From NCBI GenBank assembly GCA_016200965.1, contig JACQDT010000026.1, positions 1 to 61,683 of the forward strand: DNA of 61,683 nucleotides, given 5' to 3'. Both the position numbers and the translations under genes were made by a program. Positions 750 to 59,978 of the stretch are shown one piece after another (positions within the stretch are counted from its first letter, which is position 1; each line of letters starts with the position of its first letter). The notes under the pieces are model-generated. The model saw only the letters and a program-made list of their open reading frames with translations, had not been told where the DNA came from and made no database searches. Source of the DNA: Candidatus Azambacteria bacterium (GTDB taxonomy: Bacteria; Patescibacteriota; Minisyncoccia; GWC2-36-17; WO2-46-25).

Positions 750-765
750 GCATCTATGGTATCAC

Positions 766-3319: not shown

Positions 3320-4063
3320 TCATTTCTTATCCAGTTTTCTTTCTATCCGTTCAAGGCGACTCACGATGTCATCAACGCCAAGCTGGTCCTTGATTCCTTC
3401 AAGCAGATCGTCATCCTTGGTCTGGCGGGAATATTCTCTCATGAAAAATGAAACCAGCGACGCGATGAGAATGGAAAAGACCGCAAACCCGAGCGTCATG
3501 AGCGTCGCGCCCACCATTCTTCCTCCGAATGTCGTCACGTCATACATCGCATGCCCAGAACTGGTCACATAATTCATCGCCCACCACACCGCCTGAGGGA
3601 ACGTATGAATGGCGGCCTGCGGATTTTGCTGTTCAAAAAAGAGCGCGAGATCAGCGCCAGCGAGCACCACCACCGTCACAAAAATAAGATAATACAGGAA
3701 ATTAAGACCGAACGAGCCGAGCGCGGCGAGCACCTTGTCGGAAAGCAAAAGCACGGGAAGCCGCATGAAACGAAGCACTTTAAATATCCGGAACACGGGC
3801 GTAAACACGACCAGTACATCAAACCAATTTTCCTTCAAATGTTCTGTCTTATCTTTGGCAAGCGTCACGCGGAGCACGAACTCGCCCGTGAACACCATCC
3901 ACAAAGTGAAATAATACGCTTTGAAATATATCTCCGTCTCGGACGAAAATGAAGTAAAAAACTCCGCGAGAATCATCGGGAGAAGCGGTATTGAAAACAC
4001 CCACAATAATATGTCTATTTTTTTCGCGGCGTCCGAAAGGACGCGTTCAGTGGCTTCGTTCAT
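3320..4063 (-). CDS. Ion transport family protein (voltage-gated-channel-like) with a divergent pore sequence
   Basis: 247 aa. Multiple TM helices, an S4-like basic helix [12 protein letters not shown] and a pore region [23 protein letters not shown] in place of a TVGYGD-type filter. Confidence 0.6.
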
Positions 4064-25983: not shown

Positions 25984-26552
25984 TACACCTTACTGTAAAT
26001 ATTCGCGAAATGCCGCTCAAACGCATCCGCCATTTTATCAAGATCGCCTTCCGAAAGCACCACGCGCTGGCTGTCGAATGTCCGCACGATCGTTTTGTCC
26101 TCCGGCTCATACCCCAGCGCGCTTAAGAACTTAAATTCGAAATAGCGCAAAAAAAACTTCAGCTCCAGCGGCTTGAGTTCTTTTCGATTGAGATAATCGA
26201 ACGCTCCCACGACCAGATGGAATATGTCCTCGTCTTTTTCTTCAAACAGCGTGAACACGTCGATGAGCCGCGCCACATGCCGCGCCGCCTGCATCTTCTC
26301 CGTATCTTTCTTGAGCGTTGAAAAATGCTCTATCTCGCGGGCGGAAGTAAGCACCTTGTGCCGCACGCCAAGCACGAAAGCCACCTCGGAAAGATAAAAA
26401 AGCCCCGTATGTCCGGCGAGCTTCGCATCGGACCTGCGTATCCCGCGGGCGACCAATTCTATCTTGCCGTATTTCTTCGTATACAGCGTCAAAAACTGAT
26501 CGTGTTCCCCTTTGTTTTGCCGCTTGATAATGAGGCCTGTGGAAGCGCGCAT
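25983..26552 (-). CDS. recO: DNA repair protein RecO
   Basis: 189 aa. GLIIKRQNKGEHDQFLTLYTKKYGKIELVARGIRRSDAKLAGH is an OB-fold N-terminus typical of RecO. Confidence 0.8.
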   Translation of the reverse strand: MRASTGLIIKRQNKGEHDQFLTLYTKKYGKIELVARGIRRSDAKLAGHTGLFYLSEVAFVLGVRHKVLTSAREIEHFSTLKKDTEKMQAARHVARLIDVFTLFEEKDEDIFHLVVGAFDYLNRKELKPLELKFFLRYFEFKFLSALGYEPEDKTIVRTFDSQRVVLSEGDLDKMADAFERHFANIYSKV

Positions 26553-29500: not shown

Positions 29501-30094
29501 TTGCGCGATCTCGTGCGAAGAAAGCCCCGTGCCGCACCGCGTGCAATAGGGCGTTACTTTATAATCTTCCACCAAAAGCCCTTTCTCAAAAATGCGCGCG
29601 ATGACCCACCACAGCGTTTCCATGTACTCATTCTCGTAGGTAATATAAGGATGCTCCATGTCCAGCCAGAAACCGATGCGCTTGGTCACGCGCTCCCATT
29701 CATCTTTGTATTTCCATACCGATTCTTTGCACAAACGATTGAACTCGGCGACGCCCAATTTTTCAATGTCGGACTTCGCGCGGAAACCGAGCTGTTTTTC
29801 CACTTCAATTTCCACCGGAAGCCCATGCGTATCCCACCCCGCGCGCCGCGGCGCCCAGTACCCTTGCATCGTCTTATACCGTAAAAAAAGATCCTTAAAG
29901 CACCGCCCCATCACGTGCCCCGGATGCGGCATGCCGTTTGCCGTCGGCGGACCCTCATAAAACACAAATCGCTTCTTAGACGCGCGGCGGCTTTTCAGCG
30001 TTTTTTCAAACACTTTGTGTTTCTCCCACCACGCAAGAACTTCCTCTTCCATCAGCGCGATTTTTGATTTTTCTTTCTTATCGTTCGCTTCCAT
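26552..30094 (-). CDS. ileS: Isoleucine--tRNA ligase with an inserted histidine-phosphatase (PGAM-like) domain
   Basis: HIGH-type PHPGH, KMSKS, GTPMPIW, and CxxC knuckles (CEGCG, CTECG). About 190 extra residues between the knuckles carry RHGE, SPLVRARESA and VSHGD. Start set at ATG 30094 (MEANDKK). Confidence 0.9.
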   Translation of the reverse strand: MEANDKKEKSKIALMEEEVLAWWEKHKVFEKTLKSRRASKKRFVFYEGPPTANGMPHPGHVMGRCFKDLFLRYKTMQGYWAPRRAGWDTHGLPVEIEVEKQLGFRAKSDIEKLGVAEFNRLCKESVWKYKDEWERVTKRIGFWLDMEHPYITYENEYMETLWWVIARIFEKGLLVEDYKVTPYCTRCGTGLSSHEIAQGYKTVKEKSVYVKFRIKRTELKDDAFKEKALHKAVFDDHRATDAKEYFVVWTTTPWTLSGNVALAVHSDLEYVRAKKGDEVLVIAKARMQMLGEGWTVLQTLKGKEFAGLEYEQLFSYMKPDKKAFFVVEENFVSADDGSGIVHLAPAYGEDDMAAAKRHGLPVLYPVKENGEFSAELPWQGMFVKRADPLITEALQKRGLLLNEELYEHEYPFCWRCDTPLLYFARKSWFVKMSLLKKELLSRNATINWIPSHIKEGRFGKWLKDVKDWAFSRERYWGTPMPIWRCEGCGHTEAIESIAGLGERSTLKNRYFIMRHGEAVFNMKRIADSGGDPKNHVTSKGRKEIEISLAKFKKKFSDVRIDLIFTSPLVRARESAEIVASILGAPQDGIVNDALLREINFGVFNGRKVKEFEKFFLGKTDRFTAAPEGGENWGDVKKRMTGFIKSTELKYKGKTIFIVSHGDPLWMLEAAVSGCDKKETLRRGERARYIKKGEIRELPPGRLPLDENGNLDMHKPYIDEITLACTECGSAMKRVPEVTDVWFDSGAMPFAQEHFPFEQNDAPYKKQLKQIAFPADFISEGVDQTRGWFYTLLAVSALLEVEAPYRNVISFGHILDKAGKKMSKSKKNYADPMDIADRLGIDALRWYFFTVNSAGEPKRFDEKDVTDAQRKSVMVLLNVLQFLHSYTDMKRSAGDAPPHPTNVLDRWVISRLHQTIAAAGGALDRYDMLEASRTIAGFLDDLTNWYVRRSRERFQLREHKADYRAAAAVLRYAYETTVKLAAPFMPFVTEHIWQALKKTKSVHGETYPIADAKRIDKQLEYDMMKARNIVSIALARRSQAGVRVRQPLQTLIIKEKLGSELCELIQDEVNVKEVKTDPSLGEDARLDTTLSPALLEEGMAREIIRNVQMARKEAGLMPKDKIALSYDAQGKVMRAIEQWNAHIQSRIGAKRMARGSKSAMRIPHEVMLEGESLAFEIKKLR

Positions 30095-30127
30095 AATGCC
30101 GTATTGTATCGTGAAAGCGCGCAGACA

Positions 30128-30164
30128 GTCAAAAACCCCCGCCAAGCATGGCGGGGTTTTTGAC
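30128..30164 (-). terminator. Hairpin flanked by A5 and T5 runs (bidirectional-type intrinsic terminator) upstream of ileS
   Basis: gtcaaaaacccccgcc (30128-30143), loop aagcat, then ggcggggtttttgac (30150-30164). Confidence 0.65.
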
Positions 30165-30201
30165 TTAGTTCTCAACTTTTTGACTTTTCTAAGGTCAAGT
30201 A

Positions 30202-31868: not shown

Positions 31869-32250
31869 GGGGATGCCGGGCTTTGACAAAAGGAATATCC
31901 TTTGCACTGCGCACGCCGAGATGCCGTTTCTCGTTAAACAGCGGCACACGAATAAGTGCAAACTTATTTACACGGATAAAGAGCGCAATTGCTATGGCAT
32001 TTGCTCCCTCTTTGTCTTTCGCACGAGTTTAACTTGTGCCATCGAACCTTCTGACGTCCGATAAGAAATGTTCGGTGTCATATCATCGGGCTGCGCCCGG
32101 CGGCACTGCATCGCCGGAGTAAGCAAAAGCAGATAGACGCATGCGTATCTTGGCTGTTTTAAGCTCATGCGCGACAAAATAGAACTGCCTATGTGTGTAG
32201 AAGCGGCGTAAAGGACTTTTTGGATGTGGGTTCGACTCCCACCATCTCCA
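31869..32250 (+). ncRNA. ssrA: tmRNA (transfer-messenger RNA)
   Basis: 5' GGGGAUGCCGGGCUUUGAC and 3' GGAUGUGGGUUCGACUCCCACCAUCUCCA. The 7-bp acceptor stem includes G3:U, with a T-arm. It starts 2 nt after the smpB stop. Candidate tag frame runs from GCA 31958 to UAA 32030-32032. CCA is not encoded. Confidence 0.9.
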
Positions 32251-32273
32251 CAAAAACAAGGAGCGCGGTAACT

Positions 32274-34382: not shown

Positions 34383-35648
34383 TTATTTCAGTAAGTCATC
34401 AAGCTCGCATGAAAGCAGAGCTGATTTATTGAGCACGATCTGCTCTTTCTGGTTAAGATTATCGGCCGTCGTCCGAATGACCTTGGTCGTAATAGCGTCG
34501 CCAAGCATAATACTATTCACTTTTTTAAAATAGGATGCGTTTTTCCCAAAAAACAACGCTATAAACTGCTTGATTTGATCATTTAGTTCCGTGCCTGATT
34601 CGACTCTCACCAACCCCATTAAATCTTTCCTTGCATCCACTCCCAAGGGCTTCTGAAATTTTATCCATTCATAGGTCACTGTATAGACAACCCTTACAAT
34701 ATCTTTTTCCATCGTGTCATACGTATAAGTAAAGGAAAAATTGTCTGTGTTGAAATCTTCCTTTACGAGTATCCCCCGCAATGCAGTCACTGTATGGATT
34801 TTATATTCATCCAGAAGTCGCAAATAACTCTCTCGCCAATTCTTGAGCCAATTTCGAATGTAGTTTTTGTCTAAGAATAACGGCTCGAGATCCTGTTCGA
34901 GATTTTTGTCGCTTACTTTGTTGGTCTGAAGTGTAAGCTTATCGAAAAGCGCGCGAGGGTCTTTGATATCGATATTTTTCGCGCTTATGTAATCGAAATC
35001 CGGCACCACTTTCTTATTCATATACCAAAGGAGATCGTAAATATCACGACCTTTTTCTTCATAGATCGCATCGCCGATGCCACGAGTCCCTCGTAGAAAA
35101 ATGGCGGCAATCTTGCTCGCCATGAGTGCGGACATATTATAGGTGATAATGACGAGCGATAACTGGTCGCGATTTATCGGCCGACGTTCAGTAACGGTTT
35201 TCGGCGCGACAAAGTGATTGAGATCGATTTTTATGTGTATCTGTTTCGACGGATGGCCAAAACTAATCTCCTCGCCGACATTAAATTTTAGAAGCAACCC
35301 GCGGCCCTTGGTGGTTTTAACCGCCAGAAAATTGGCATTCGTACCATAGGTATTCTCGAAATGTTCATCAACTTCCTTTTTCAGCTCTTCAAGAAACTTT
35401 TCGGTCACCGCGTGGGACACTTCGAAATCGAGATCAACCGACATGCGATCCAATCCATGAATGATGCGCAGAGCCGAACCGCCATACATGATCCAGTCGT
35501 TGTATTCCGGATGGTGATAGATGAAATTGAGAACGTAATACTGCAACTCCTCTTTGAGCGCGTTACGCCGTGTCTCGGCATTGAGACCACCGTAATTAGC
35601 GAGGTCTTCCAATTTTCTTTTTAAGATTGAGGTTAGTCGTTCACTCAT
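34383..35648 (-). CDS. AbiEii/AbiGii family nucleotidyltransferase toxin (type IV TA)
   Basis: 421 aa. ...IMYGGSALRIIHGLDRMSVDLDFEV is a DUF1814-type NTase motif. It overlaps the upstream AbiEi-like gene by 8 nt. Confidence 0.8.
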   Translation of the reverse strand: MSERLTSILKRKLEDLANYGGLNAETRRNALKEELQYYVLNFIYHHPEYNDWIMYGGSALRIIHGLDRMSVDLDFEVSHAVTEKFLEELKKEVDEHFENTYGTNANFLAVKTTKGRGLLLKFNVGEEISFGHPSKQIHIKIDLNHFVAPKTVTERRPINRDQLSLVIITYNMSALMASKIAAIFLRGTRGIGDAIYEEKGRDIYDLLWYMNKKVVPDFDYISAKNIDIKDPRALFDKLTLQTNKVSDKNLEQDLEPLFLDKNYIRNWLKNWRESYLRLLDEYKIHTVTALRGILVKEDFNTDNFSFTYTYDTMEKDIVRVVYTVTYEWIKFQKPLGVDARKDLMGLVRVESGTELNDQIKQFIALFFGKNASYFKKVNSIMLGDAITTKVIRTTADNLNQKEQIVLNKSALLSCELDDLLK

Positions 35649-38687: not shown

Positions 38688-40610
38688 CTACCCATTATTT
38701 TTCAAAAGATGGTCTATATTCTTACATGTTTTTTCAATGAGTTTCTGAATTATCAGAATATTTTCTTCGTTATATGCTCCGGTATTATAATTATTATCCA
38801 CCTCATCCATATAAGCCGCCTCGTTACATTCTAACTGAAAAGTATTTACGCCTTTTTGACGCTCACCATAAAATTCTACATTATGCGCTCCCTTAAAAGG
38901 ATGATTAACGCCAACAAGTCCACCCTTAATGTGCTTGGTCAATCGCTTTTTAATGCTGTCGTCCAACGCATTAAAATTCTTTTCCAAAGCATGAGTAAAG
39001 GCATCTCTGATATCTTGATCACAGGATGTCCCATCCGCGTCCCCGATAATAAACATCGGTAATTCTTCGGGGTTTTCTACGCCATAGAGTTTGAAATAGT
39101 CGTGAACCACAGAGCTTATCGGGAAAGAATGCCCATCAATGACAAGAATTCGTTCGTTATCACCTCTTCTGTCGGCTAAACTGCCGATAACTCCCATCAT
39201 CTTATTGTAATAAGATACATAGAAATCCTCTGCCAGATTCCGCACTTCTTCCCCTGTTGGTTCCTGTCCCGCTTTGTACATGGTCCCACCGCGTATCCCC
39301 TTGTACCACAAAACCTTTCCGGGTACTTTTGAGTTTTGCTCAAGGAGTGGAGCTCTGTTTGGGTCAACGATAAAGCGGGATAATTTCGTCCCCACACTCG
39401 GAATATCCTTGGAACGAAAAATTTCGCTTGTCCCTCTATCAACAAAAATAAAAGTATCTTTACCCTCTTCTGTTGCGCGCTCCCAAAGATCGCTCGGAAT
39501 ATATTCCCCAGCGTGAGGCCTGCCAAAACAAACAGATACGCATTCGCGCTCTCTTAACGCTCTATCGTCTACATCAACGGCATTCTCTGGCGTTATTTCA
39601 TCGCTCTCTATACTCTGACGCGTCGGCAATCCTCTCGCTTCCAGAGCATTAAGCACTTTCACAGGGCGCTCCCTTTTCTCCATATCCATAACAAAAGGGA
39701 ATTGCGAAATTTTTTCAATCTTTTCGTCAGTAATTATTATATCTTTTATCACTTCGTGGGGGATTTCCTCATTGAATTCAAATACCAACCTTTTTCCATC
39801 ACCATCTTCAACTTCCTTCTTGTAGCGTATGCGGATGGCAAACTCATCCGAATTTTTATTTAAAATATCAACTTCAAACCCTTCCGTATAATCAAACCCT
39901 TGATTACTGAGAGCTTGGACAAACTTATCTCGTTCTTCTGCGCCTTTGGTCTTTTCTATCACCTTGGCAAGAAATGATTCGTTCACGCCTTGGTGCGTCC
40001 CGAAAAATCGCTCCAATGTATCTGAGTATTCTTTTTGCTCGTCTTGCACTAATTTATCCCACCTTTTTGCAATCCCTATGTACTTGTCTATAATACTTGC
40101 GATATTTGAAGCTCCTCTTGAATAGGTAAAACTTGTTTCGTCTCCCGATTCCTTTGCTAATCTGTCGCTTTGTTCAACTAAAAACTTCAGGTAGTCGCCT
40201 CGCTTAAAATGATCGAGTGCGCTTACTCCGAATTCAGAACTAAAATCTATACCGAAGTCCAATCTTCTATCTACCCCTATTTTGGATCCTTTAGCCAGTC
40301 CTTTGTCTACTTTTTCTCTCAACTCTTCCAACGACTCATCTCCCGTTATCCCTTCTTGATTTCCAGACATCACGAACCCGGCGGTTTCCTGCGCTCGTGT
40401 TCTCGGGCTTCCGAAAGCGACTGACTGTTTCATATTTTTTGTATCACTTTTTTCTTTGGCTTGTTTTTTCCCAACAGGAGTTAATTCAATATCAAGATCC
40501 GATTTTGACTTGTTGTTTTCTTTTTCTCCGTGCCGAAAAAACGAGAGTTCAATCTTAGATGTGTACTCTTCGTGACTTTCAGATTTTTGAATATCCTCGA
40601 GTCTTTCCAT
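38688..40610 (-). CDS. Fusion protein: histidine-phosphatase-like N-terminal domain plus N-formylglutamate amidohydrolase (FGase)-like C-terminal domain
   Basis: N-half: FFRHGEKE, GSPRTRAQETAG, GTHQG. C-half: FGRPHAGEYIP, SRFIVDPNR, LVIDGHSFP, GVNHPFKG, resembling FGase family motifs. ATG at 40610 (MERLEDIQ). Confidence 0.55.
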   Translation of the reverse strand: MERLEDIQKSESHEEYTSKIELSFFRHGEKENNKSKSDLDIELTPVGKKQAKEKSDTKNMKQSVAFGSPRTRAQETAGFVMSGNQEGITGDESLEELREKVDKGLAKGSKIGVDRRLDFGIDFSSEFGVSALDHFKRGDYLKFLVEQSDRLAKESGDETSFTYSRGASNIASIIDKYIGIAKRWDKLVQDEQKEYSDTLERFFGTHQGVNESFLAKVIEKTKGAEERDKFVQALSNQGFDYTEGFEVDILNKNSDEFAIRIRYKKEVEDGDGKRLVFEFNEEIPHEVIKDIIITDEKIEKISQFPFVMDMEKRERPVKVLNALEARGLPTRQSIESDEITPENAVDVDDRALRERECVSVCFGRPHAGEYIPSDLWERATEEGKDTFIFVDRGTSEIFRSKDIPSVGTKLSRFIVDPNRAPLLEQNSKVPGKVLWYKGIRGGTMYKAGQEPTGEEVRNLAEDFYVSYYNKMMGVIGSLADRRGDNERILVIDGHSFPISSVVHDYFKLYGVENPEELPMFIIGDADGTSCDQDIRDAFTHALEKNFNALDDSIKKRLTKHIKGGLVGVNHPFKGAHNVEFYGERQKGVNTFQLECNEAAYMDEVDNNYNTGAYNEENILIIQKLIEKTCKNIDHLLKNNG

Positions 40611-40702
40611 AGACAAAGATTGTTTTAGACATAAATAATATTGGCGGGCATTGAACAAAATCCATTGTCAGTAAAGCACTTAATCGCCTTGAAGTAAATG
40701 CC

Positions 40703-43219: not shown

Positions 43220-43507
43220 ATGCGCCCAATAAAAAGCTCAAATATAAAAAAGAAAAGTCGGGCGGTTTCTCGCGGGATAACATTCAGACAAGCCCTCTTT
43301 TGGGATACCAATCCAAAAAATATAGACGCCAAAAAACACGCTCGCTATATCATTGAGCGGATTTTAGAGTTTGGACATGATGATGAGGTGCGTTGGATAT
43401 TCAAACAGTATCCGGAGCATATTATAAAAAAAGTCATAAATCTTCCTCGCGTTCAATTAAGTCCTAGATCAAAAACCCTATGGACACTTCTTCTCAAAAC
43501 CAAATAA
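43220..43507 (+). CDS. Small protein upstream of an AbiEii-like NTase (putative antitoxin partner)
   Basis: 95 aa from ATG 43220 (MRPIKSS...). It overlaps the downstream NTase gene by 28 nt. I recognise no motif. Confidence 0.5.
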   Translation: MRPIKSSNIKKKSRAVSRGITFRQALFWDTNPKNIDAKKHARYIIERILEFGHDDEVRWIFKQYPEHIIKKVINLPRVQLSPRSKTLWTLLLKTK

Positions 43508-44160
43508 ACTGGCATTATGAAACATTGCCGCGTCGGACGAAAAAGGCATTTGATTTTTTATCGCAACAAGAGTGGCTAAAGGAATCAAAGTGGTATCTCG
43601 CCGGCGGAACGGCTTTGGCCCTTCAGGCGGGCAATCGCAAGTCCCTCGATTTGGATTTCTTCACGGAAGAAAAAAATTTTGATGAAAAAGAGTTAGCTGC
43701 TCATTTTATTGATAATAAAGATTGGATTACTGAGGTGGAAAGAAAAAATACTATCTACGGAAAGCTCTTGGGAGCTAAAGTAAGTTTTATCGCATATCCA
43801 TTTTTTATGCCAAAACAAAAACCGCTTTGGCATGGGTCGATCCGCGTGCTGAATCAAATTGATATTGCCGTAATGAAAATAACCGCTATTTCGCAACGGG
43901 GTCGAAAAAGAGATTTTTTTGATCTCTATTGGTGCGCGAAAAACATAGAGCCGCTGGAACATATTATCAAACGGCTCAAAGTCCAATATCCGTCCGTAGC
44001 CCATGACTATCATCATATTTTAAAAAGCATGGTGTACTTTGAAGACGCCGAAAGCGATCCGCCGCCAGAAATATTTTTCAAAGCAAGCTGGAACGACGTC
44101 AAAAATTATTTTAAAAAAGAAATCGTGGATATTACCAACGCCATGCTTATAAAAAAATAA
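43480..44160 (+). CDS. Nucleotidyltransferase, AbiEii/DUF1814-like (short form)
   Basis: 226 aa. WYLAGGTALALQAGNRKSLDLDFF and ...RGRKRDFFDLYW are the NTase motifs shared with AbiEii toxins. Confidence 0.7.
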   Translation: MDTSSQNQINWHYETLPRRTKKAFDFLSQQEWLKESKWYLAGGTALALQAGNRKSLDLDFFTEEKNFDEKELAAHFIDNKDWITEVERKNTIYGKLLGAKVSFIAYPFFMPKQKPLWHGSIRVLNQIDIAVMKITAISQRGRKRDFFDLYWCAKNIEPLEHIIKRLKVQYPSVAHDYHHILKSMVYFEDAESDPPPEIFFKASWNDVKNYFKKEIVDITNAMLIKK

Positions 44161-51549: not shown

Positions 51550-52200
51550 CTAGATATCAACTTGGATATTTTTTTGCAATTTATGCATCTCATTTTTAAT
51601 CTCGTCAATAACCTCGGAGTTGTGAATTCTTTTTTTATCGCCCTCTTTGATTGAAATAACATAGAAAACTTTACCGCCGTATTTTTCTGTGAATTTTTTG
51701 TGTGTTTTTTCTTGCAATTGTCTTTCTTTAAATATTTGCGAAATATGGGAAACGCCGCTTGCGGGTTTAATCTGGAGACCGATACACTTCCCATTTAATT
51801 TTATAAAGAAATCAACATTATACCCTCTATCCCATTCATCGGGGGCTGGTTCGATTTTTACGCCCAACATTTCCTGCAATTGTCCGTAAATAGTCGCTTT
51901 TTCCGTCATATACCCATCAAACGTTCTCTTGATAACCAAGTCAAAGATATAAGCGATACAATCTCCTTCTGTGATAGTTTCAACTTCCGAGGCAATAACC
52001 TCCGTTATTTTTACATAGAGCTTTTTGCCTAAATCAACAATGTGTTCTTTGGGTTTAACATTTTTGAAATAATAACCTTCCCAATCTTTAATTGTTTTGG
52101 GCGAGCATTTTCTTATTTCTTCGGAAACAGCCCCAACATTTCTTTTGAAATTCAATTGAAACCTGTTTGTCGCCGAATTTAAAATCCATTCTTTCGCCAT
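51550..52200 (-). CDS. Putative type II restriction endonuclease (PD-(D/E)xK-like)
   Basis: 216 aa and AT-rich. It lies immediately downstream of, and co-oriented with, a DNA methyltransferase. A candidate catalytic stretch is YNVDFFIKLNGKCIGLQIKP. Confidence 0.5.
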   Translation of the reverse strand: MAKEWILNSATNRFQLNFKRNVGAVSEEIRKCSPKTIKDWEGYYFKNVKPKEHIVDLGKKLYVKITEVIASEVETITEGDCIAYIFDLVIKRTFDGYMTEKATIYGQLQEMLGVKIEPAPDEWDRGYNVDFFIKLNGKCIGLQIKPASGVSHISQIFKERQLQEKTHKKFTEKYGGKVFYVISIKEGDKKRIHNSEVIDEIKNEMHKLQKNIQVDI

Positions 52201-52201
52201 A

Positions 52202-53488
52202 TTATTGTTGTAGTAGATTTAAAAATTTTAATTTATATTTATAATCAAATTTATCATCAACATTCACGAAGCCGGTTTTTATCAAATGTGCATTGACAAA
52301 AGTTTTATTTTGCAAATATAAATAGCAGAGCAAATTATTTTCGCTATCGTATTTTGAGTTATCAAACCTCATAAAAACTCTTTGATTTTTCAATTTTGCT
52401 TGTAAAAATTCCGTTGCCTTATGAAGCGTTTCCCTTTTCGCCTTCACACCGATTAATCTAATCGCCAAATCATTATTTAATAAAATCTTTTCCGGGTTAA
52501 TAATTTGTTTCACAGAATATAAATCAACCTTTTCGTTATCTACGGAATCGATTTTTGAGCCAAATTTCAATTTTTTAGGGTCAATCTTTCTGCTAAATTT
52601 TATTGCATCCTTAAAAATATATGGTAGCTTTGAAATTTCTTTTTTAAAATCTGTGGTTTTATTTTTCTGTTCTATAACCTCAAAGTGTACGCTCTTAAAT
52701 AAATCTGCCTTATCTGTTCCGATTTTTTCTTTTATTATCTGTAGGAATTCCTTATTTATTTCAAAACCAACGGAGTTGCGCTCTAAATTTTTTGCCACAA
52801 GGGTGGTTGTGCCGCTTCCCAAAAACGGGTCCAAAACCGTATCACCCGCAAAGCTAAACATTTTAATGAGCCGTTTGGGCAATTCTTCGGGAAACATTGC
52901 CAAATGCTTGTCTTGTTTTGCGCCATTAAAATTCCAATGTCCGGTAAAATACTGGTTCCATTCTTCTTTGGACATCTTGGATTTTTCTTTTACTTCTTTT
53001 GATGCCGTAGGCGCTTCTCCTGTTTTTTTAAAAATTAAAATAAACTCGTAATCTAGTTTAATAATTCCATTTCTCGGATAGGGAAAACTGCCCATTATGG
53101 TTGCTCCGCCGGTAGTATTCATCGTGGTAGCTTTCTGCCAAATGACGGCCCCCATATAATCAAATCCTATGGTTTCACAAAATTTTATTATTTCCGTTCT
53201 GATTGGGATAACTTTGTATCTTCCATAATAAACCGATCTCGCAAATTGATCGCCGATATTTATACAAAGACGGCACCCGTCATGTAAAACCCTCTCACAT
53301 TCTTTCCAGACCAAATTAAGATTATTGATATACTCTTCATAGCTATCATTAAAACCAATCTGATTCAGAGAACCATAATCTTTTAACTGCCAATAGGGCG
53401 GTGAAGTAATCACAAGATGAACGGATTTGTTTTGCAATTCCGCCATATCGCGGGAATCACCAATTATAATTTTGTGATTGGTTTTCAT
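52202..53488 (-). CDS. DNA methyltransferase (beta class, SPPY motif IV; N4-cytosine or N6-adenine) with an SNase-like C-terminal extension
   Basis: Motif IV VITSPPYW precedes motif I VLDPFLGSGTT. The C-terminal IRLIGVKAKRETLHKATEFLQAKLKNQRVFMRFD...LLCYLYLQNKTFVNAHLIKTGF resembles a thermonuclease fold with altered catalytic positions. Confidence 0.8.
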   Translation of the reverse strand: MKTNHKIIIGDSRDMAELQNKSVHLVITSPPYWQLKDYGSLNQIGFNDSYEEYINNLNLVWKECERVLHDGCRLCINIGDQFARSVYYGRYKVIPIRTEIIKFCETIGFDYMGAVIWQKATTMNTTGGATIMGSFPYPRNGIIKLDYEFILIFKKTGEAPTASKEVKEKSKMSKEEWNQYFTGHWNFNGAKQDKHLAMFPEELPKRLIKMFSFAGDTVLDPFLGSGTTTLVAKNLERNSVGFEINKEFLQIIKEKIGTDKADLFKSVHFEVIEQKNKTTDFKKEISKLPYIFKDAIKFSRKIDPKKLKFGSKIDSVDNEKVDLYSVKQIINPEKILLNNDLAIRLIGVKAKRETLHKATEFLQAKLKNQRVFMRFDNSKYDSENNLLCYLYLQNKTFVNAHLIKTGFVNVDDKFDYKYKLKFLNLLQQ

Positions 53489-53506: not shown

Positions 53507-55369
53507 TCACATCCTCTCAAGCGTTTTGATGCCAAGCAGATGAAGCCCATTTTTGATGACGTGCGCAGTCGAACTCACCAGCAACAGCCGCGTGGTTTTA
53601 GTATCACCTTCTGCATTCAGCACGGAATCCTCGTTGTAAAAACGGTTGAAATCCTGCGCGAGCGCGTTTAGATATGTCGCCAGAATATGCGGGTGATCGC
53701 CTGCCGTGCATTCACGTATCGTTTCCGGAAACCGCGCAATGCGCCGTATGAGTTTTGCTTCCCACTGCGTGGTAATGCTTGTGTGCGCCGCATCTGCTTC
53801 AGAAATGGTTTTTTCCGCTTTCCGTAAAATGCTCATCGCCCGCGCGTACACATATTGAAGATAGGGCGCGCTTGCTCCCTCCAAACTCAACGCCTTTTCC
53901 CACGTGAATATAATGTCTTTTTCTCTTGACTGCGAAAGGTCGCTGTAGATGACCGCGCCGATGCCGACGGCGCGGGCAATGTCCTTTTTCTCCGCTTCCG
54001 AAAGTTCGGGATTCTTTTGTGATACAATGTCATACGCACGCCGTTTCGCTTCCTCGATCAGATCCTCCAAAAAGACCGCTCTCCCCTCGCGCGTGGACAT
54101 TTTTCCTTCGGGAAGCGATATGAGCCCGAACGGGTCGTGCCGAAAAAGTTTTTTGTCGTGCCCCAAACGTTCAAGCGTCGCGAACACCTGCTTGAAATGC
54201 AACGTTTGCTCCCCGCCCACCACGTAGATTATCTTTTCCGGGGCGAATTCTTTGAGCCGGAACTCCGCCGCGGCGATATCGCGCGTGGCGTACAGCGACG
54301 AACCGTCCTTTTTCTGCAGAAGATACGAAGGAAGCTTCTCTTCTTCAAAATTCACCGCCACGGAACCATCATCGTTTTTAACCGCCGCTTTTTCTTTCAG
54401 TGACCTCTCAATCACGGCCGCAAGTTTTCTCTGATAAAAACTCTCGCCGAGCACCAGATCAATATCCACCCCCAACGCACGATAGATGCCGTCAAATTCG
54501 GAGACGCTCATAATACAAAACTCAAGCCACATGGACACAAGCTCCGGATCACCTTCCTCCAGCTTCTTGAACGCTTCGCGCGCTCTTTCCTCAAGTGCAA
54601 GGTCTTTTTCCGCCTCCTCATGAAACTTTACATACAAGCGGAGCATTTCCTTTATAGGGTCTTTCTTGAACGCCGCATCATCACGCCATCGCTCGTATGC
54701 CACAAGCAATTTCCCGAACTGCGTGCCAAAATCACCGAGGTGATTGATGCCAATAACGGCATACCCCTGAAACTCATACAGCCGTTTGAGCGATGCGCCG
54801 ATAATGGTAGAACGCAGATGCCCCACGCTCATCGGCTTTGCAACGTTTGGGTGGGAATAATCAAGTAGGATAATTTTTCTTTTTCCCTCTTGTGATGCTC
54901 CGTATACGTCTCCAAGTTCAGCGACTGCTTTGAGGGTTTCTTGCGCGAGCGCATCGTCGCGAAGTTTCACATTGGCGTATCCGCCCACAGCCGCAACGCT
55001 CAACACAAAAGGAAATTCCGCGCGCTTCACGGCCGCGGCAACTTCTTGCGCCGCGGCGTGCGGATTTTTCTTTTTCTCTTTGGCAAGAAAAAAGCAGGGA
55101 ATCGCAAAATCAGCGTCCGCCTCCTCCGGCGGCGTTTCAACCCTCGCCCCTTTTCCCACGTCATGCGCTATGCGTCGTTCAATCTGCCGCTGAAACGCGA
55201 CGTAAGGATACGTTTCGCGATGCGGGTTGCGTGCGGCACGAAGCATGTTTTTTTGCATGCTGCTTTTCACCCGCCCGACCTCTTCCATCCCCAGCTTTTC
55301 TTCAACCGCAAACGCATCCGCACGAGGATTTTTCTTGAGCTCCCGGGCTATTTTCTCGTAGATGTTCAT
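53507..55369 (-). CDS. argS: Arginine--tRNA ligase
   Basis: 620 aa. HIGH-region SHPNVAKPMSVGHLRS and a C-terminal DALR-type anticodon-binding domain ending ...GIKTLERM. Confidence 0.95.
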   Translation of the reverse strand: MNIYEKIARELKKNPRADAFAVEEKLGMEEVGRVKSSMQKNMLRAARNPHRETYPYVAFQRQIERRIAHDVGKGARVETPPEEADADFAIPCFFLAKEKKKNPHAAAQEVAAAVKRAEFPFVLSVAAVGGYANVKLRDDALAQETLKAVAELGDVYGASQEGKRKIILLDYSHPNVAKPMSVGHLRSTIIGASLKRLYEFQGYAVIGINHLGDFGTQFGKLLVAYERWRDDAAFKKDPIKEMLRLYVKFHEEAEKDLALEERAREAFKKLEEGDPELVSMWLEFCIMSVSEFDGIYRALGVDIDLVLGESFYQRKLAAVIERSLKEKAAVKNDDGSVAVNFEEEKLPSYLLQKKDGSSLYATRDIAAAEFRLKEFAPEKIIYVVGGEQTLHFKQVFATLERLGHDKKLFRHDPFGLISLPEGKMSTREGRAVFLEDLIEEAKRRAYDIVSQKNPELSEAEKKDIARAVGIGAVIYSDLSQSREKDIIFTWEKALSLEGASAPYLQYVYARAMSILRKAEKTISEADAAHTSITTQWEAKLIRRIARFPETIRECTAGDHPHILATYLNALAQDFNRFYNEDSVLNAEGDTKTTRLLLVSSTAHVIKNGLHLLGIKTLERM

Positions 55370-55487
55370 ATACCATATCGTATCGCATTTTCCGCATCAA
55401 ATAAAGCTGATTGACATGGGTACTGAAATAATGTACCATCGCGACATCTGGACAGAAGGATTGCACACTACAACAGGAGGGAACGCC

Positions 55488-56063
55488 ATGATGCAACGAT
55501 ACGTGATGCTCGCGTCCGTGATCTTTTCTTTGTTTTTGTGTTTCGCGCCCAATGCGTTCGCGCTGGAAATTCATCTGACCGAACTTGCCCCAACGAGTGT
55601 TCCTTCGGATAAAAACAGCGAAGGTGCGGCGTTTTGGTTCCAGCTTGGGGACATTCTGGAAAATCCAGCCGAGATTGTGCTCGCCGTCCAGATCACAAAT
55701 GCAGAAAATATGTACCGGGGAGGATTTGATCTGGTGTTTGACCCGAACATTCTTGCGTTTGTTGAAGCAGAACCGGGAGAATTTCTCGGCAATGCCGATT
55801 TTCACGCCCGGGAATCTCTTGCCAGCGATAAACAGTATCCGGGGCAACGCCTCATTACTGTCGGTTATAAACAAATCGGGAAGAAAAGTGTCATGAATGG
55901 GTCCGGCACCATCGCATTACTGCGATTTCGTATATTGCAGAATGGGGATACCGCTCTTCGGCTGGTGCGCCGTGGAATATACACTCCCCAAATTGACCCC
56001 CACACCGAGAGACCGACGTATGTCCCTTCCAAAGCGATAAACGTTCTTCTTAAAGTGGAATAA
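55488..56063 (+). CDS. Secreted cohesin-domain-like protein
   Basis: GGAGGG lies before ATG 55488. Signal peptide MMQRYVMLASVIFSLFLCFAPNAFA. GGFDLVFDPNILAFV...GSGTIALLRFRI resembles cohesin-type beta-sandwich motifs. Confidence 0.55.
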   Translation: MMQRYVMLASVIFSLFLCFAPNAFALEIHLTELAPTSVPSDKNSEGAAFWFQLGDILENPAEIVLAVQITNAENMYRGGFDLVFDPNILAFVEAEPGEFLGNADFHARESLASDKQYPGQRLITVGYKQIGKKSVMNGSGTIALLRFRILQNGDTALRLVRRGIYTPQIDPHTERPTYVPSKAINVLLKVE

Positions 56064-56221: not shown

Positions 56222-57385
56222 GTGGGGAAAAGTCTGAAGGTAATTGCTAGAATCACGGATAAATGTAACCAGGATTGCACCTATTGCTATGTTGACCGGG
56301 AAACCCGACGCACATCAAGAACCAAGTTGAGTTTAGAGTCGCTCTCGCGATTCTATAAGGAAACACTTTCCGGGCAACACTTTGACCACGTCCACATTGT
56401 CTGGCATGGCGGCGAACCGACGCTTGTTGGGCACGAGTATCTGGATCGGGTCATTTCACTTCAGGAACAATACCGGGGAAACGGCGTGACCGTTGAGAAT
56501 TCGATCCAAACCAATGCCACCGCCCTCGACAAACAAATGCTTGAGGTGTTTAAAAAACATCAGGTGGGAGTTGGTGTATCGTTAGATGCTCCCCCTGACG
56601 TACACGCCAGCATGAGAGTTTCGTGGGCTGGTCGCTCCGCGTTCGAGCAAACACTTTCCAAAATCGAGTTGATGCGCGCGCACAACATACGGTTTGGCGC
56701 CATCTGTGTCCTGCATCGACTCAACTACACGCGCTGCGATGAGATTTACGACTTTTTCAAGTCTGTTAATCTCAGCTACCAATTCAACCCGTTCTACAAG
56801 GACGAGGCCACGCAAGACCGTCCTGTGGAGGAGCTTTCCATAACCCCTGAACAGTACGCAGAGGCGCTTATCCAAACCTTCGACCGGTACATTGGTGACC
56901 CAGAGCATACCATTGATGTAACCGACCTGAAAGAAATCGTTCTCAGCATGTTCATGGGATGCAGCCGGAGCTGTCTCTTCGCCGGAAAATGTGAAGAGTT
57001 TATCGGGATTCTTCCGACCGGCGAAATTTACCTGTGCGACCTGTTTTACCGCGAGAACTTTCGCATTGGGCACATTGATTCAATCACTGCCGAGTCAATA
57101 CTCAATGCGGCCCCGGTCAACCTGATACGGTCAAGGCCCGAGCTCCTTCAGCAAACTTACTGCAGGGGGTGTGAGTGGTGGGACATTTGTCGCGGGGGAT
57201 GCAGCTCAAAATCGGCAGCCGTATACGGCAACGCTATGCGCGAAGATCCTTTTTGTCTCACACGTAAAGAGTTGTTCGCGCACATCAAGGATACTCTGTT
57301 AACATTCAAAAACCGAGAGGAGGTGATGGCCCTTGCAACGAACCAAGGAAGCTCATTCAGAATCAGTCCCTGTGGATCAGTTTAA
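56222..57385 (+). CDS. Radical SAM/SPASM domain peptide- or protein-modifying enzyme
   Basis: GTG start 5 nt after GGAGGA. CNQDCTYC (CX3CX2C) at residues 15-22, then WHGGEPTL and QTNATAL. The C-terminal Cys cluster is CSRSC...GKC...LCD...CRGCEWWDICRGGC...DPFC (SPASM-type). Confidence 0.9.
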   Translation: MGKSLKVIARITDKCNQDCTYCYVDRETRRTSRTKLSLESLSRFYKETLSGQHFDHVHIVWHGGEPTLVGHEYLDRVISLQEQYRGNGVTVENSIQTNATALDKQMLEVFKKHQVGVGVSLDAPPDVHASMRVSWAGRSAFEQTLSKIELMRAHNIRFGAICVLHRLNYTRCDEIYDFFKSVNLSYQFNPFYKDEATQDRPVEELSITPEQYAEALIQTFDRYIGDPEHTIDVTDLKEIVLSMFMGCSRSCLFAGKCEEFIGILPTGEIYLCDLFYRENFRIGHIDSITAESILNAAPVNLIRSRPELLQQTYCRGCEWWDICRGGCSSKSAAVYGNAMREDPFCLTRKELFAHIKDTLLTFKNREEVMALATNQGSSFRISPCGSV

Positions 57386-57518
57386 CCCGGCTGATTTTAG
57401 GTCTTGCGATTCCCCTGCTTTGGCTACTATCGCAAAGCAGGCAACCGAAGCGAAAACCGGGGCGGTCGCATGGTCTACAAAAGACTGGAACGCCAACTGG
57501 CAAAACCGGCGAAGTTAA
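57333..57518 (+). CDS. Candidate RiPP precursor peptide (61 codons, TTG start)
   Basis: GGAGG (57319-57323) lies 9 nt before the TTG. It overlaps the maturase 3' end in another frame. The stop is 8 nt before a strong terminator. C-terminus AVAWSTKDWNANWQNRRS. Confidence 0.4.
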   Translation: MQRTKEAHSESVPVDQFNPADFRSCDSPALATIAKQATEAKTGAVAWSTKDWNANWQNRRS

Positions 57519-57526
57519 TCGCCTGA

Positions 57527-57560
57527 CGGGGCTGGAGAAATCCAGCCCCGTTCTTTTTTT
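57527..57560 (+). terminator. Intrinsic terminator of the rSAM operon
   Basis: cggggctgga (57527-57536), loop gaaa, tccagccccg (57541-57550), then ttcttttttt. Confidence 0.85.
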
Positions 57561-57585
57561 CCAACCTACTGATATACTACGTTGT

Positions 57586-58311
57586 ATGAAGCTTCACTTT
57601 TCTGTAGCCAGCAAAAAAGCAACTGCATTTTACTTGTTAGGGCTCGCCTTAAACCACGGGTCTTTTCCGTCTACCACCGCAAAAGAGCGCAAAATGTTTT
57701 CCAAAACCAGTAAAAATAAACGGCTTCCACCTTACATCGTGCCTTCCAGTTATCAGTTGTATGGATCACTGAAAGCATCTATTCTGAGTGGTAAGTCCAC
57801 GCTCCTTGATAGCATTTTTAAAAAAACCTTCAAACAGTTAAACGGTGTTGAAATTCGCGGCGTTACGCGGCACAAAGCAAATGTGCTACAAAAGAGCCTT
57901 CGCATTCTCTACGATACATACAGAGAAAAAATCTCTTTGTTTTTCAAGTGCCAAAAGGTACGGCAAGATATCGAATTTCATGTGTATGTGTTACCCGATT
58001 TTGGTGAAAGAGCAGAATCTCTCCCCAATGCCATCGTCATTGGGGACGCCTTTCACAAAAAAATTGCCTTTGCGGTGGTTATGGAGGAATTTCTTCACGC
58101 GTTATACGGGCGCGGTTTTATAAAAATGGCGGTCTCGCCAAAAACGAAGGATAAAAATCTCTGGGAAGAAGCGGTTGTGGGAACAATTCTCTTCCAACTT
58201 CTTGCGTCTATTGGATATGACAAAAACGTGTCGAAATCAATTGTTTTCGGCTGGCAGAGTGGGAAAAGAGAAAAGTTGGTTGAAAAACTCTTAAAAATCC
58301 TCAGCGAATAA
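57586..58311 (+). CDS. Hypothetical protein (241 aa)
   Basis: The ORF starts 26 nt after the terminator. I recognise no motif with confidence (VVMEEFLHALYG is not a canonical HExxH). Confidence 0.5.
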   Translation: MKLHFSVASKKATAFYLLGLALNHGSFPSTTAKERKMFSKTSKNKRLPPYIVPSSYQLYGSLKASILSGKSTLLDSIFKKTFKQLNGVEIRGVTRHKANVLQKSLRILYDTYREKISLFFKCQKVRQDIEFHVYVLPDFGERAESLPNAIVIGDAFHKKIAFAVVMEEFLHALYGRGFIKMAVSPKTKDKNLWEEAVVGTILFQLLASIGYDKNVSKSIVFGWQSGKREKLVEKLLKILSE

Positions 58312-58325
58312 ATACTATTATCCCT

Positions 58326-59978
58326 TCACATCCCTTCCACGAACTGCTGGACGGCTTCGGCGCTGGGGTTGTGAAGCGGAAGCGACACGTAAAACTGCGA
58401 ACCCTTGCCCTCGCCTTGCGATTCTACCCACACCTCGCCGCCGTGGGCTTTCACTATTTCTCTGACAATGTAGAGTCCCAAACCGGAACCGTCGGCGCGG
58501 AACTTCGTCACCCCCCGCGCGCGGCTGAATTTCTGAAACAGTTTTTGTATCGTATCTTCCGACAATCCGATGCCGGAGTCCCTCACCGCAACCACCACGT
58601 TGTCCTTTTTGCGCTCAAGCGAGATTTTTATGAAACCCTCGGGCGTATATTTGAGCGCGTTGTCAATAAGATTGATGAACACCTGCCGGATTTTTCCGTA
58701 ATCGGCTTTTATCTTCGTTTCTGCGTCGTCAACCGACACCTTAAATTCAATCGCCACATTTTTCCTGTCCGCGGTGAATTTCAGCTCGTCGGCCGCGTCT
58801 TTCAGCGCGTTGAATACCTTCACTTCTTCAAACATAAGCTGCATGCGCCCCTGCTCAATGCGCGAGACGTCCAGCAGATCGTTCACGATGAAAATGAGTC
58901 GCTGGGCCGACTGGAAAATCTTATCCACCACTCCGCGCACCGTTACCGGCGTCTCGCCGTACGTTCCTTCCAAGATCATGGACGAATACCCCTTAATCGC
59001 CGTCAGCGGCGTGCGCAACTGATGCGACGCGATGGAAATGAAATCCGTTTTCAAGTCGTCCAGCTCCTTGAGCCGCGCGTTCGCGATTTGCAGGTCCTTC
59101 GTGAGAAGCTCCAGCTGTTCCCTCTGCTTCACCTCTTTGCGCACGCTCCGGATAAGCAGAATCCCGAGCACGATCAAAAACGCCAGCAACCCGCCGTCAA
59201 TAATCCGCTCCTGCAATGACTGAGCCAACAGCGTTCGTGCAAGCAAGAAAATCCATATCGCAAACGTTAAAAACTCGGTTGCGACAACTCTTACGTCAAA
59301 AAGCTGGTACCGGACAATGGCAATGGCAAGAACGGGGACCAAGATAAATGTTGAGTAGGGACCGAGCCAGAAATAATTAAAGTTACCGAATGTGGGAAGA
59401 ATGAGGTTCGTAGTAGTATTGAAGATCGCAGTAACCGCGGAGGCGAGAAGGATATAACGAAGGCGCACCTCTTCAATCCCGGCTGATACGCGATATTTTT
59501 TAAGCAACATCAGAAATGCCGTGATAAGGGTTAAGATAAAATGAGCCCAGTAAAGAAAGTAGAGCGGACCAAACTCAAAACTGCGGCTTCCGATCGCTGG
59601 ATCAAAAAGCACGTCTTTTATAAGCGTGTTAGTGAAAAAAAGGAGGTAGAAAAAAAGGAGGTTGGGCGAGAGAATAAGCGCAAGAAGCGAAAAACGGATT
59701 GTTGCGCGTTCATTGGGAAACACGATTGCGAACATGAAGAATGAGGTGACAATAAAGCTCCCCGTGAAATAAACGAAGTTGCTCCAGAAACGCATTTGGG
59801 AAAGATCGTATATAAAAAACATGAATATCCCCAAACTCCATAAACCGATATTGAGTACTGCCAAACCATAAAACAAGTTGATTAAACTTTTTCTATTGCG
59901 TGAATAGATAAAAATACCGAAAAGAAGCGAGAGAAAAGAGAGGAGCGGGAGAAAAATCAAACGGAGATCAAGGATCAT
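58326..59978 (-). CDS. Sensor histidine kinase with a multi-pass (about 7 TM) N-terminal domain
   Basis: 550 aa. H-box ISIASHQLRTPL, DSGIGL, GSGLGLYIV. The tail ends AEAVQQFVEGM. Confidence 0.85.
   Translation of the reverse strand: MILDLRLIFLPLLSFLSLLFGIFIYSRNRKSLINLFYGLAVLNIGLWSLGIFMFFIYDLSQMRFWSNFVYFTGSFIVTSFFMFAIVFPNERATIRFSLLALILSPNLLFFYLLFFTNTLIKDVLFDPAIGSRSFEFGPLYFLYWAHFILTLITAFLMLLKKYRVSAGIEEVRLRYILLASAVTAIFNTTTNLILPTFGNFNYFWLGPYSTFILVPVLAIAIVRYQLFDVRVVATEFLTFAIWIFLLARTLLAQSLQERIIDGGLLAFLIVLGILLIRSVRKEVKQREQLELLTKDLQIANARLKELDDLKTDFISIASHQLRTPLTAIKGYSSMILEGTYGETPVTVRGVVDKIFQSAQRLIFIVNDLLDVSRIEQGRMQLMFEEVKVFNALKDAADELKFTADRKNVAIEFKVSVDDAETKIKADYGKIRQVFINLIDNALKYTPEGFIKISLERKKDNVVVAVRDSGIGLSEDTIQKLFQKFSRARGVTKFRADGSGLGLYIVREIVKAHGGEVWVESQGEGKGSQFYVSLPLHNPSAEAVQQFVEGM

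Follow-up and report, generated by a model that had tools for sequence, protein, structure and literature searches.

Radical S-adenosylmethionine (SAM) enzymes cross-link the tryptophan side chains of certain peptides, among them darobactin, dynobactin and the xenorceptides, and these peptides currently rank with the most promising new antibiotic scaffolds against Gram-negative bacteria. To our knowledge, all such peptides described so far come from Proteobacteria. In the darobactin system a precursor and one enzyme suffice as a minimal cluster, and the enzyme makes the aromatic cross-links. The closest known likeness of this enzyme, DarE, is the anaerobic sulfatase-maturating enzyme (anSME), yet DarE forms cyclophanes; the same is true of the dynobactin enzyme (PMC10288494). 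Dynobactin A, with the core WNSNVHSYRF (PMC10125368), contains a C-C bond from C6 of Trp(i) to the C-beta of Asn(i+3) (PMC11002830). Here we describe a three-gene cassette in a 61,683-nt contig of a Candidatus Azambacteria bacterium (GenBank JACQDT010000026.1; the window, in what follows, is this whole stretch of DNA). In order, it encodes a radical SAM/SPASM enzyme, a small precursor peptide and an accessory protein of ~240 amino acids (aa). By analogy with the systems above, we estimate a probability of about 0.6 that the cassette makes a RiPP (a peptide synthesized by ribosomes and modified post-translationally) with cross-linked Trp residues, dynobactin-like in design and distinct in family. 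Candidatus Azambacteria is placed in the Patescibacteria group, Parcubacteria group, Candidatus Azamiibacteriota. Three proteins of the window, its CTP synthase, its DNA polymerase I and an MBL-fold hydrolase, share 90%-identity clusters with proteins named Candidatus Azambacteria bacterium.

The small gene beside the radical SAM enzyme

A first-pass annotation had proposed that a small open reading frame (ORF) at the 3' end of the radical SAM gene encodes a precursor with a core rich in Trp, Asn and Lys. Re-reading of the sequence reproduced the translation, (M/L)QRTKEAHSESVPVDQFNPADFRSCDSPALATIAKQATEAKTGAVAWSTKDWNANWQNRRS followed by the stop, together with the composition of the last 15 residues (three W, three N and one K), the lone Cys in RSCDSP and the 53-nt overlap with the radical SAM ORF (56222..57385). 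All three Trp of the peptide are within these 15 residues, and its leader has none. The elements of the gene are as follows.

57319..57326, forward strand: Shine-Dalgarno (SD) sequence GGAGGTGA of the peptide gene, 6 nt upstream of the TTG and within the 3' end of the enzyme gene
57333..57518, forward strand: precursor ORF (61 aa) with a TTG start, translated from the sequence
57333..57470, forward strand: leader of the precursor, residues 1-46, from the peptide alignments
57471..57515, forward strand: core WSTKDWNANWQNRRS, from the codon alignment (13 loci), the composition by offset from Trp and the profile search
57516..57518, forward strand: stop codon TAA of the precursor gene; relatives have TAA, TAG or TGA at the aligned position
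57525..57562, forward strand: intrinsic terminator, beginning 7 nt past the stop codon, with a 12-bp stem (8 G-C pairs), a 4-nt loop and a T run; the stem-loop itself is 57525..57552

Three Trp in 15 residues could by themselves arise by chance (roughly 1e-3 per ORF tail). When all six frames of the window were scanned for the core motif, no further copy came up. The gene was compared over 13 loci, namely the window, L001, L002 (L003 is identical in sequence), L004-L007, L034 and L114-L118; the family members P0005, P0008 and P0014 lie outside this set, and in the P0003 locus 249 nt separate the enzyme gene from a gene for a 228-aa protein. A small ORF is present at the same place beside the enzyme in 13/13 loci, whose enzymes are homologues at 48-73% identity. 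In the 12 other loci it has 53-67 codons and starts at or just ahead of the end of the enzyme gene. In eleven of the 12, the start codon (ATG, GTG or TTG) has the SD sequence AGGAGGTGA, or one close to it, 4-8 nt ahead of it, L006 having no clear SD; in most, a G+C-rich hairpin with a T run follows the peptide stop codon, and in nine the small ORF had already been annotated by independent gene callers.

A profile built from the 13 peptides was searched against 5.8 billion proteins and gave only seven matches, all from this type of cassette. Six came from loci in hand and one, P0127 (...MGWSGKDRNGNWGGRRS), was new, bringing the number of peptides to 14. When the window peptide was used as a single query in a word-index search there was no match; only the 13-peptide profile found relatives. 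P0127 lies on a JGI contig of 1561 bp, and the second Trp of its core is replaced by Arg (GWSGKDRNGNWGGRRS). It is either a natural two-unit variant or the result of a sequencing error, one change converting TGG to CGG/AGG.

The peptides are alignable end to end. After 15-20 variable N-terminal residues there is a conserved leader segment, [DN]P..[FL]......P.[VI]A.IA, a possible recognition helix, then a variable linker and then the core, with the consensus W-[SNAG]-x-K-[DN]-W-[ND]-x-[NDK]-W-x-x-[RN]-[RK]-[TSH]-stop. Shorter cores were found in L115 and L117 (WGPN[DQ]SWSGRRT) and in L118 (SFAKDWNGNWKNRRT), and the L007 and L114 peptides have a four-residue follower and end in PF. There are 38 Trp in the 14 peptides, all inside the last 20 residues. 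The pattern of W, N and K proposed for the window is thus found in the homologous small ORFs as a conserved C-terminal Trp/Asn/Lys/Arg core of 12-15 residues, and the N-terminus of ~45 residues taken to be the leader corresponds to a variable leader of about 46 residues ahead of it.

The first-pass annotation had also asked whether the frame survives in relatives. It is open in 13/13 loci, and in most pairs the synonymous sites are saturated: the proportion of synonymous differences, pS, is 0.77-0.95 against a proportion of nonsynonymous differences, pN, of 0.31-0.51 (over all pairs, 0.45-0.95 and 0.11-0.51, respectively). In the two least diverged, unsaturated pairs the ratio of nonsynonymous to synonymous rates, dN/dS, is 0.17 and 0.23. 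Conserved residues of the core are encoded by differing codons (AAA/AAG, GAC/GAT, AAC/AAT and six Arg codons), and the other two frames of the core region contain stops in several loci. This pattern of substitution indicates that the peptide frame is under purifying selection. Because the ORF, SD, terminator and core are conserved across the 13 loci, the small ORF is more than a chance occurrence, and it is very probably a real translated gene and the partner of the enzyme. In 13/13 loci it is short, adjacent to the enzyme, co-conserved with it and made up of a variable leader and a conserved core, as is general for RiPP precursors; its proposed role as a precursor beside its maturase agrees with these data.

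The overlap between the two genes had been thought compatible with translational coupling. Its extent differs among the loci, from a gap (-8 nt) up to +71 nt, and beyond about residue 362 the enzyme's C-terminal tail differs in both sequence and length. The overlap is thus incidental. Of the original proposal there remains the SD inside the enzyme gene, which is compatible with coupled translation, while the 53-nt overlap itself is not conserved. The one element of the tail that looks conserved, 'KEV/EEV' near the C-terminus of the enzyme (alignment columns ~410-437), is what the peptide SD encodes in the frame of the enzyme. A Cys lies close to the end of several of these unconstrained tails.

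Core pattern and proposed cross-links

Composition of the core was analysed by offset from Trp. The third position after every Trp (38/38 in the 14 peptides) was occupied by R (13), K (12), N (12) or D (1), against a background of 28% for K/N/R/D in the peptides. By comparison, the second position is variable and has Gly in 13/38 cases. Gly has no C-beta, so a bond to C-beta(i+2) cannot be the conserved chemistry. This speaks against the three-residue triads (WQN, aromatic-x-N/K/R) that had been considered as cross-link sites. Spacing between Trp residues is 4 to 5 in the main core type and 6 in L115/L117, with no W-x-W, and this difference between core types speaks against bridges conserved between Trp residues. 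On the N-terminal side of Trp, no offset is occupied consistently.

W-N-x-N occurs in 10/14 cores, as WNSN in four of them, and W-x-x-N is found somewhere in 12/14. Since W-N-x-N is the motif of dynobactin ring 1, the W-N-A-N of the window peptide, already singled out in the first-pass annotation, is by this analogy the best-supported part of its proposals. A thioether from the single Cys had been its alternative. Cys is absent from 7/14 peptides, the RSCDSP column has it in 5/14, and L117 and L118 have it in another column; as the Cys column is not conserved, the thioether alternative was rejected.

The core of the window peptide can be read as three W-x-x-(K/N/R) units, W47-K50, W52-N55 and W56-R59, followed by a conserved C-terminus of the RR[ST] type. 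Conservation and the dynobactin analogy are the grounds on which we propose one ring in each unit. In the suggested pathway, the enzyme would bind the leader through the conserved P-x-[VI]-A-x-I-A segment without a RiPP recognition element (RRE) domain, DarE and DynA also having none. Using SAM and three [4Fe-4S] clusters, it would abstract a C-beta hydrogen from the residue at i+3 to each Trp (K50, N55 and R59) and join that carbon to the indole, which would give up to three consecutive four-residue Trp-(Lys/Asn/Arg) cyclophanes. The link would be the same i to i+3 C-C bond as the Trp1-Asn4 bond made by DynA in the W-N-S-N of dynobactin. The product of the third gene, predicted to be gluzincin-like with EExxH for HExxH, would then remove the leader to leave a small, cationic, Trp/Arg-rich macrocyclic peptide. 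There are no conserved residues ahead of the first core Trp, so N-terminal trimming to the first ring would be more plausible than a site-specific cut.

These steps differ in strength. By analogy with known enzymes of this kind, macrocyclisation of the core through Trp side chains is probable. An i to i+3 topology at all three sites, argued from the same analogy, is a tentative assignment that falls somewhat short of an even chance. The joint proposal would be a Patescibacteria-specific RiPP whose 15-residue core bears three four-residue Trp-(Lys/Asn/Arg) C-beta cyclophanes in a row, together with a miniature EExxH leader peptidase and a product possibly aimed at hosts or competitors; as a whole, this is rather unlikely to be right in every part.

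The enzyme, the third gene and the occurrence of the cassette

The two other genes of the cassette flank the precursor gene.

56222..57385, forward strand: radical SAM/SPASM enzyme, 387 aa, putative maturase (Pfam PF04055 and PF13186)
57586..58311, forward strand: third gene, 241 aa, putative atypical gluzincin-like leader peptidase (alignment, AlphaFold2 model and Foldseek)

Both Pfam domains of the enzyme scored above threshold (PF04055, 66.7 bits against 29.5; PF13186, 23.6 bits against 21.5). The radical SAM motif CxxxCxxC corresponds to C15, C19 and C22 and is invariant in 16/16 aligned members. The SPASM cysteines C251, C257, C272, C314, C317, C323, C327 and C345 are conserved and align with the auxiliary-cluster sites of the anSME 4K36 (E = 9e-39 for the alignment of the two proteins). 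Among PDB proteins the match to anSME was 137 bits and that to ChlB 73 bits. With the curated NCBIfam models, all of the scores listed were below the cut-off of the family.

anSME, TIGR03942: 246.6 bits, cut-off 349.45
DynA (dynobactin maturase), NF041298: 234.5 bits, cut-off 450
DarW: 167.5 bits, cut-off 650
DarE, NF038005: 150.4 bits, cut-off 650
YhhB, NF041707: 146.8 bits, cut-off 445
AmcB, NF041718: 138 bits, cut-off 425
GrrM, TIGR04261: 121.4 bits, cut-off 310
FxsB, TIGR04269: 111 bits, cut-off 370
XyeB, TIGR04496: 94.4 bits, cut-off 450

All 16 members matched the anSME and DynA models, with best E-values near 1e-70 and scores below the DynA cut-off in every case. To place the enzyme, hidden Markov model scores were compared with those of the named anSMEs P0082, P0107 and P0087 as controls, whose scores were 427-486 bits with the anSME model and 209-219 bits with DynA. 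The window enzyme, at 246.6 bits against 427-486, is therefore not an anSME. For the nearest outgroup (P0018, P0020 and P0033, ~32% identity) DynA was the better-scoring model, with 299-306 bits against 234-271 bits for anSME, and these sequence scores give a modest hint of affinity to dynobactin-type enzymes. Overall, the enzyme falls in the anSME-like clade together with DynA, DarE, DarW, YhhB and AmcB, and in none of the curated families. A defence assignment by PADLOC was discarded, as it reflected only generic similarity of the radical SAM core to viperins (58 bits).

The enzyme subfamily is small, with about 17 homologues at 48-73% identity and the next ones at ~33%. A scan of GTDB species representatives with the enzyme profile found no close family member, the best match being 30% identical, and a scan of JGI metagenomes with the enzyme profile found one close locus, L034. 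Near 20 distant homologues of the enzyme (22-30% identity), small ORFs with Trp-rich tails amounted only to noise from high-GC frames; the peptide is therefore specific to the close enzyme subfamily. Flanking genes vary by locus and include FtsA/FtsZ, ComEC, NDK, exonuclease VII, nitroreductase and kinases. No sulfatase domain was found among the called neighbours of any locus or among the scanned proteins of the window. Apart from the peptide and the ~240-aa third gene, no neighbour of the enzyme is conserved, and the functional unit is therefore the enzyme, the peptide and usually the third gene. Twelve loci extend far enough downstream to judge this last gene; it comes after the peptide in 10 of them and is missing from L005 and L006. 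In L116 (179..3637) the three-gene block is directly flanked by xseA (179..1318) on one side and xseB (3428..3637) on the other, as though it had been inserted whole. The three-gene cassette is rare and occurs in a few uncultured Patescibacteria. Among the papers searched, none had any of six characteristic core strings or described such a cluster in candidate phyla radiation bacteria.

Searches with Pfam, NCBIfam, PADLOC and PDB sequence profiles gave no family match for the third gene, and only 24 representatives of its own family were found among 1.84 billion proteins. In a 20-member alignment E167, E168 and H171 (EExxH, 20/20), K63, L105, G199 and R228 are invariant, and E141 and E144 (in G-E-x-x-E-S) and E195 nearly so. 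AlphaFold2 with the alignment gave a model with a local confidence score (pLDDT) of 90.1 and a predicted TM-score (pTM) of 0.89, against a pLDDT of 34.6 for the single-sequence model. Foldseek comparison of the model with the PDB gave no match at E <= 0.001 (best E 0.043); nearly all of the top 50 matches were M1/M61 gluzincins with probabilities to 0.99, all of them sub-threshold (TM 0.26-0.38 over ~130 columns), including tricorn factor F3, an M61 enzyme, aminopeptidase N, LTA4 hydrolase, ERAP1 and EryP. The predicted order, a small sheet, the EExxH helix and a helix with E195 24 residues after H171, is the gluzincin order HExxH...E, with EExxH in place of HExxH and the downstream Glu nearly invariant. 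From this model, a role as leader peptidase is conceivable, with the odds slightly against it, and this step is the weakest of the whole chain. Two other candidates were put aside. A di-iron hint of an aldehyde-deformylating oxygenase (E = 0.01-0.04, one member, on the EExxH helix) stood against a single conserved His, a beta-sheet and the gluzincin-like matches, and alignment by hhalign of the third-gene profile with an L002 neighbour annotated 'Peptidase_MA_2 (faint)' showed no relation.

Other genes were noted around the cassette. Directly upstream of the enzyme gene is a 233-aa protein (window 55362..56063, forward strand) with an N-terminal hydrophobic segment; it has a borderline cohesin domain (23.9 bits, cut-off 24.1) and is not conserved with the cassette elsewhere. 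Sensor histidine kinases of HisKA_7TM-type/HisKA lie beside the cassette in three of 13 loci (window 58326..59978, reverse strand; L007 1..222; L114 1..1613), an arrangement that may reflect common synteny or hint at sensing of the peptide. L006 (3391..4190 and beyond), the most divergent locus and one of those where the third gene is missing, has a 1512-aa multicopper-oxidase and tyrosinase protein downstream.

The rest of the window contains housekeeping genes, a transfer-messenger RNA (tmRNA) gene, a restriction-modification pair and AbiEii-like genes, among which the following were recorded.

26552..30175, reverse strand: class I tRNA synthetase of 1207 aa, isoleucyl-type by domains, with a His_Phos_1 domain (residues 538-706) inserted between the halves of the catalytic domain
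31869..32253, forward strand: tmRNA gene (Rfam, 126.8 bits), tag peptide ANLFTRIKSAIAMAFAPSLSFARV
34383..35648, reverse strand, and 43480..44160, forward strand: AbiEii-like nucleotidyltransferase toxin genes (type IV toxin-antitoxin/abortive infection)
38688..40658, reverse strand: 656-aa protein with an N-terminal His_Phos_1 segment fused to N-formylglutamate amidohydrolase (FGase)
51550..53488, reverse strand: restriction-modification pair, of which 51550..52200 is an MjaI-type endonuclease
52202..53488, reverse strand: N6/N4 DNA methylase of this pair, with a C-terminal staphylococcal-nuclease-like segment

Alternative explanations and comparison with known systems

A number of observations weigh against a dynobactin-like cassette. 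The chemistry of the core is inferred by analogy throughout, and the 38 cases at i+3 are homologous columns, not independent trials; the conserved K/N/R could equally serve target binding or solubility. No core has the second, His-x-Tyr ring of dynobactin or indeed any Tyr, and 12/14 peptides lack a C-terminal aromatic residue, only L007 and L114 ending in Phe, after an extra xxP. The first and second Trp are not strictly invariant, L118 having no W1 and P0127 having R for W2. Likeness of the enzyme to DynA is largely generic (234.5 bits against 209-219 for true anSMEs). The cassette contains no exporter or immunity gene, and the lack of an exporter has to be counted here. For the third gene, the Foldseek E-values are all >= 0.04, the first zinc ligand is Glu and not His, and two loci do without the gene.

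The same enzyme and precursor could produce other cross-links, such as three-residue cyclophanes, darobactin-type Trp-O-Trp ethers or streptide-like bonds from Lys/Asn to a following Trp. The matches to the YhhB, AmcB, GrrM, FxsB, XyeB and DarE models (94-150 bits), the three aromatics at similar density in xenorceptide cores, the K-D-W and N-W arrangements in the core and the replacement of the first unit by F-A-K in L118 are in line with this. It is unlikely, given that i+2 is variable at all three sites, that Trp-Trp spacing is not conserved, that there is no consistent partner in the reverse direction (K at -2, N at -3 or -1) and that all curated family cut-offs were missed by wide margins. 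A thioether of the sactipeptide or ranthipeptide type, formed from the leader Cys, would account for the one Cys in RSCDSP and for weak matches to the thioether-making SPASM families PapB, CteB and SCIFF; with half of the peptides free of Cys and the 'SC.SPA' Cys confined to 5/14, it can hardly be correct. It is just as improbable that the ORF is fortuitous or part of a non-coding feature (the 3' untranslated or terminator region of the enzyme gene). Its overlap with the enzyme gene, its TTG start and its lack of a database family would fit such an origin, but ORF, SD and core are kept in 13/13 loci, amino acids are preserved where synonymous sites are saturated, alternative frames have stops, and independent gene callers recognised the gene in most loci.

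Two explanations accept the gene and change its role. SPASM enzymes make pyrroloquinoline quinone (PQQ) and mycofactocin from small peptides, and the peptide might similarly be the precursor of an intracellular cofactor or signal that the third gene processes, by analogy with PqqA/PqqE, MftA/MftC or streptide. This would suit a cassette without exporter or immunity gene, reduced host genomes and the HisKA_7TM kinases in the window, L007 and L114. It is nevertheless very unlikely: the further enzymes needed for PQQ or mycofactocin are absent, the cassette has a rare and scattered occurrence (about 14-24 lineages) that does not resemble that of a core cofactor, the kinases occur in only 3/13 loci, and the conserved cationic RR[ST] tail fits a peptide that is kept better than a small molecule that is cut out. 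The other explanation is that the peptide is no substrate at all, the enzyme being an anSME or an anSME-like enzyme modifying proteins and the peptide an unmodified Trp/Arg-rich cationic peptide or small regulator co-transcribed with it by chance. Trp/Arg-rich linear peptides can act without modification; the top NCBIfam and PDB matches of the enzyme are anSMEs, and it retains the anSME Asp after the third Aux-I cysteine ('CD'), to which Goldman et al. in 2013 reportedly assigned a catalytic role. The low anSME score (true anSMEs reach almost twice this value, and the cut-off is 349), the lack of a sulfatase gene in any neighbourhood looked at, the restriction of the peptide family to the vicinity of this enzyme subfamily, and the peptide and third gene being its sole conserved neighbours leave little chance for it. 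The preferred explanation thus remains the three-gene RiPP cassette with a Trp-cross-linked product.

If this explanation is true, the chemistry would reach into the candidate phyla radiation, whose bacteria have tiny genomes and from which few natural products are known, and a ring type seen so far in only one ring of dynobactin would be generalised to three consecutive rings in a compact cationic poly-macrocycle from an episymbiotic, genome-reduced bacterium. The regular W-x-x-(K/N/R) repeat offers a clean test of the i to i+3 ring as a general capability of such enzymes. Also added would be a new family of putative leader peptidases of very small size, in which the site is an unusual EExxH. 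The cassette is one of very many uncharacterised radical SAM RiPP clusters.

Among known systems, anSMEs (TIGR03942; PDB 4K36-4K39) are the best sequence match to the enzyme and have the same length, three-cluster architecture, cysteines and Aux-I Asp. They differ in their partner; in place of a sulfatase, the enzyme here has a peptide of 53-67 aa in which no (C/S)-x-(P/A)-x-R motif is conserved. The triceptides and xenorceptides (XyeB/XncB, GrrM, FxsB, YhhB, AmcB, ChlB) resemble the system in having several aromatics per core and one radical SAM/SPASM enzyme, and Asn, Lys or Arg are the usual C-beta partners there. Their ring is aromatic-x-X (i to i+2), whereas here i+2 is often Gly and i+3 always K/N/R/D, and XYE clusters carry protease, HlyD and transporter genes. 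The M1 leader peptidases of class III lanthipeptides (EryP/AplP) and other gluzincins are the proteins whose catalytic domains the predicted fold of the third gene product matches most consistently, though below threshold (all E >= 0.04); in the model a motif helix is followed by a Glu helix, and a strand motif G-E-x-x-E stands where M1 enzymes have GxMEN. They are 600-900 aa long against 241 aa and have HExxH against EExxH, and at the sequence level the third gene product matched no peptidase family or PDB chain.

Darobactin (DarA core WNWSKSF) likewise has a Trp- and Lys/Asn-rich core and one anSME-like radical SAM/SPASM enzyme. DarE, however, has an N-terminal extension of ~70 aa, and the dar operon includes the ABC transporter genes darBCD; darobactin links i to i+2 (DarE, Trp3-Lys5), and there is no W-x-W ether unit here. 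By the definition of daropeptides (650 bits with DarE; a W-x-W-x-(K/R) core) the system falls outside them, its Trp being 4-6 positions apart. Dynobactin of Photorhabdus australis, whose maturase is called DynA in NCBIfam and DynB/DynE in papers, has in common with the cassette an anSME-like radical SAM/SPASM enzyme of ~360-390 aa without RRE, a core at or near the precursor C-terminus, and the W-N-x-N pattern of ring 1; WNSNWQNRRT and WNSNVHSYRF match at 5/10 positions. The differences are three W-x-x-(K/N/R) units against one, no His-x-Tyr second ring, a C-terminal RR[ST] that is not aromatic, another accessory gene, the order of enzyme then precursor, and a host among Patescibacteria and not Enterobacterales. 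Overall, the system fails membership of the DynA, DarE, triceptide-enzyme and anSME families, and its precursor and accessory protein have no described family; in design it is most like dynobactin and darobactin.

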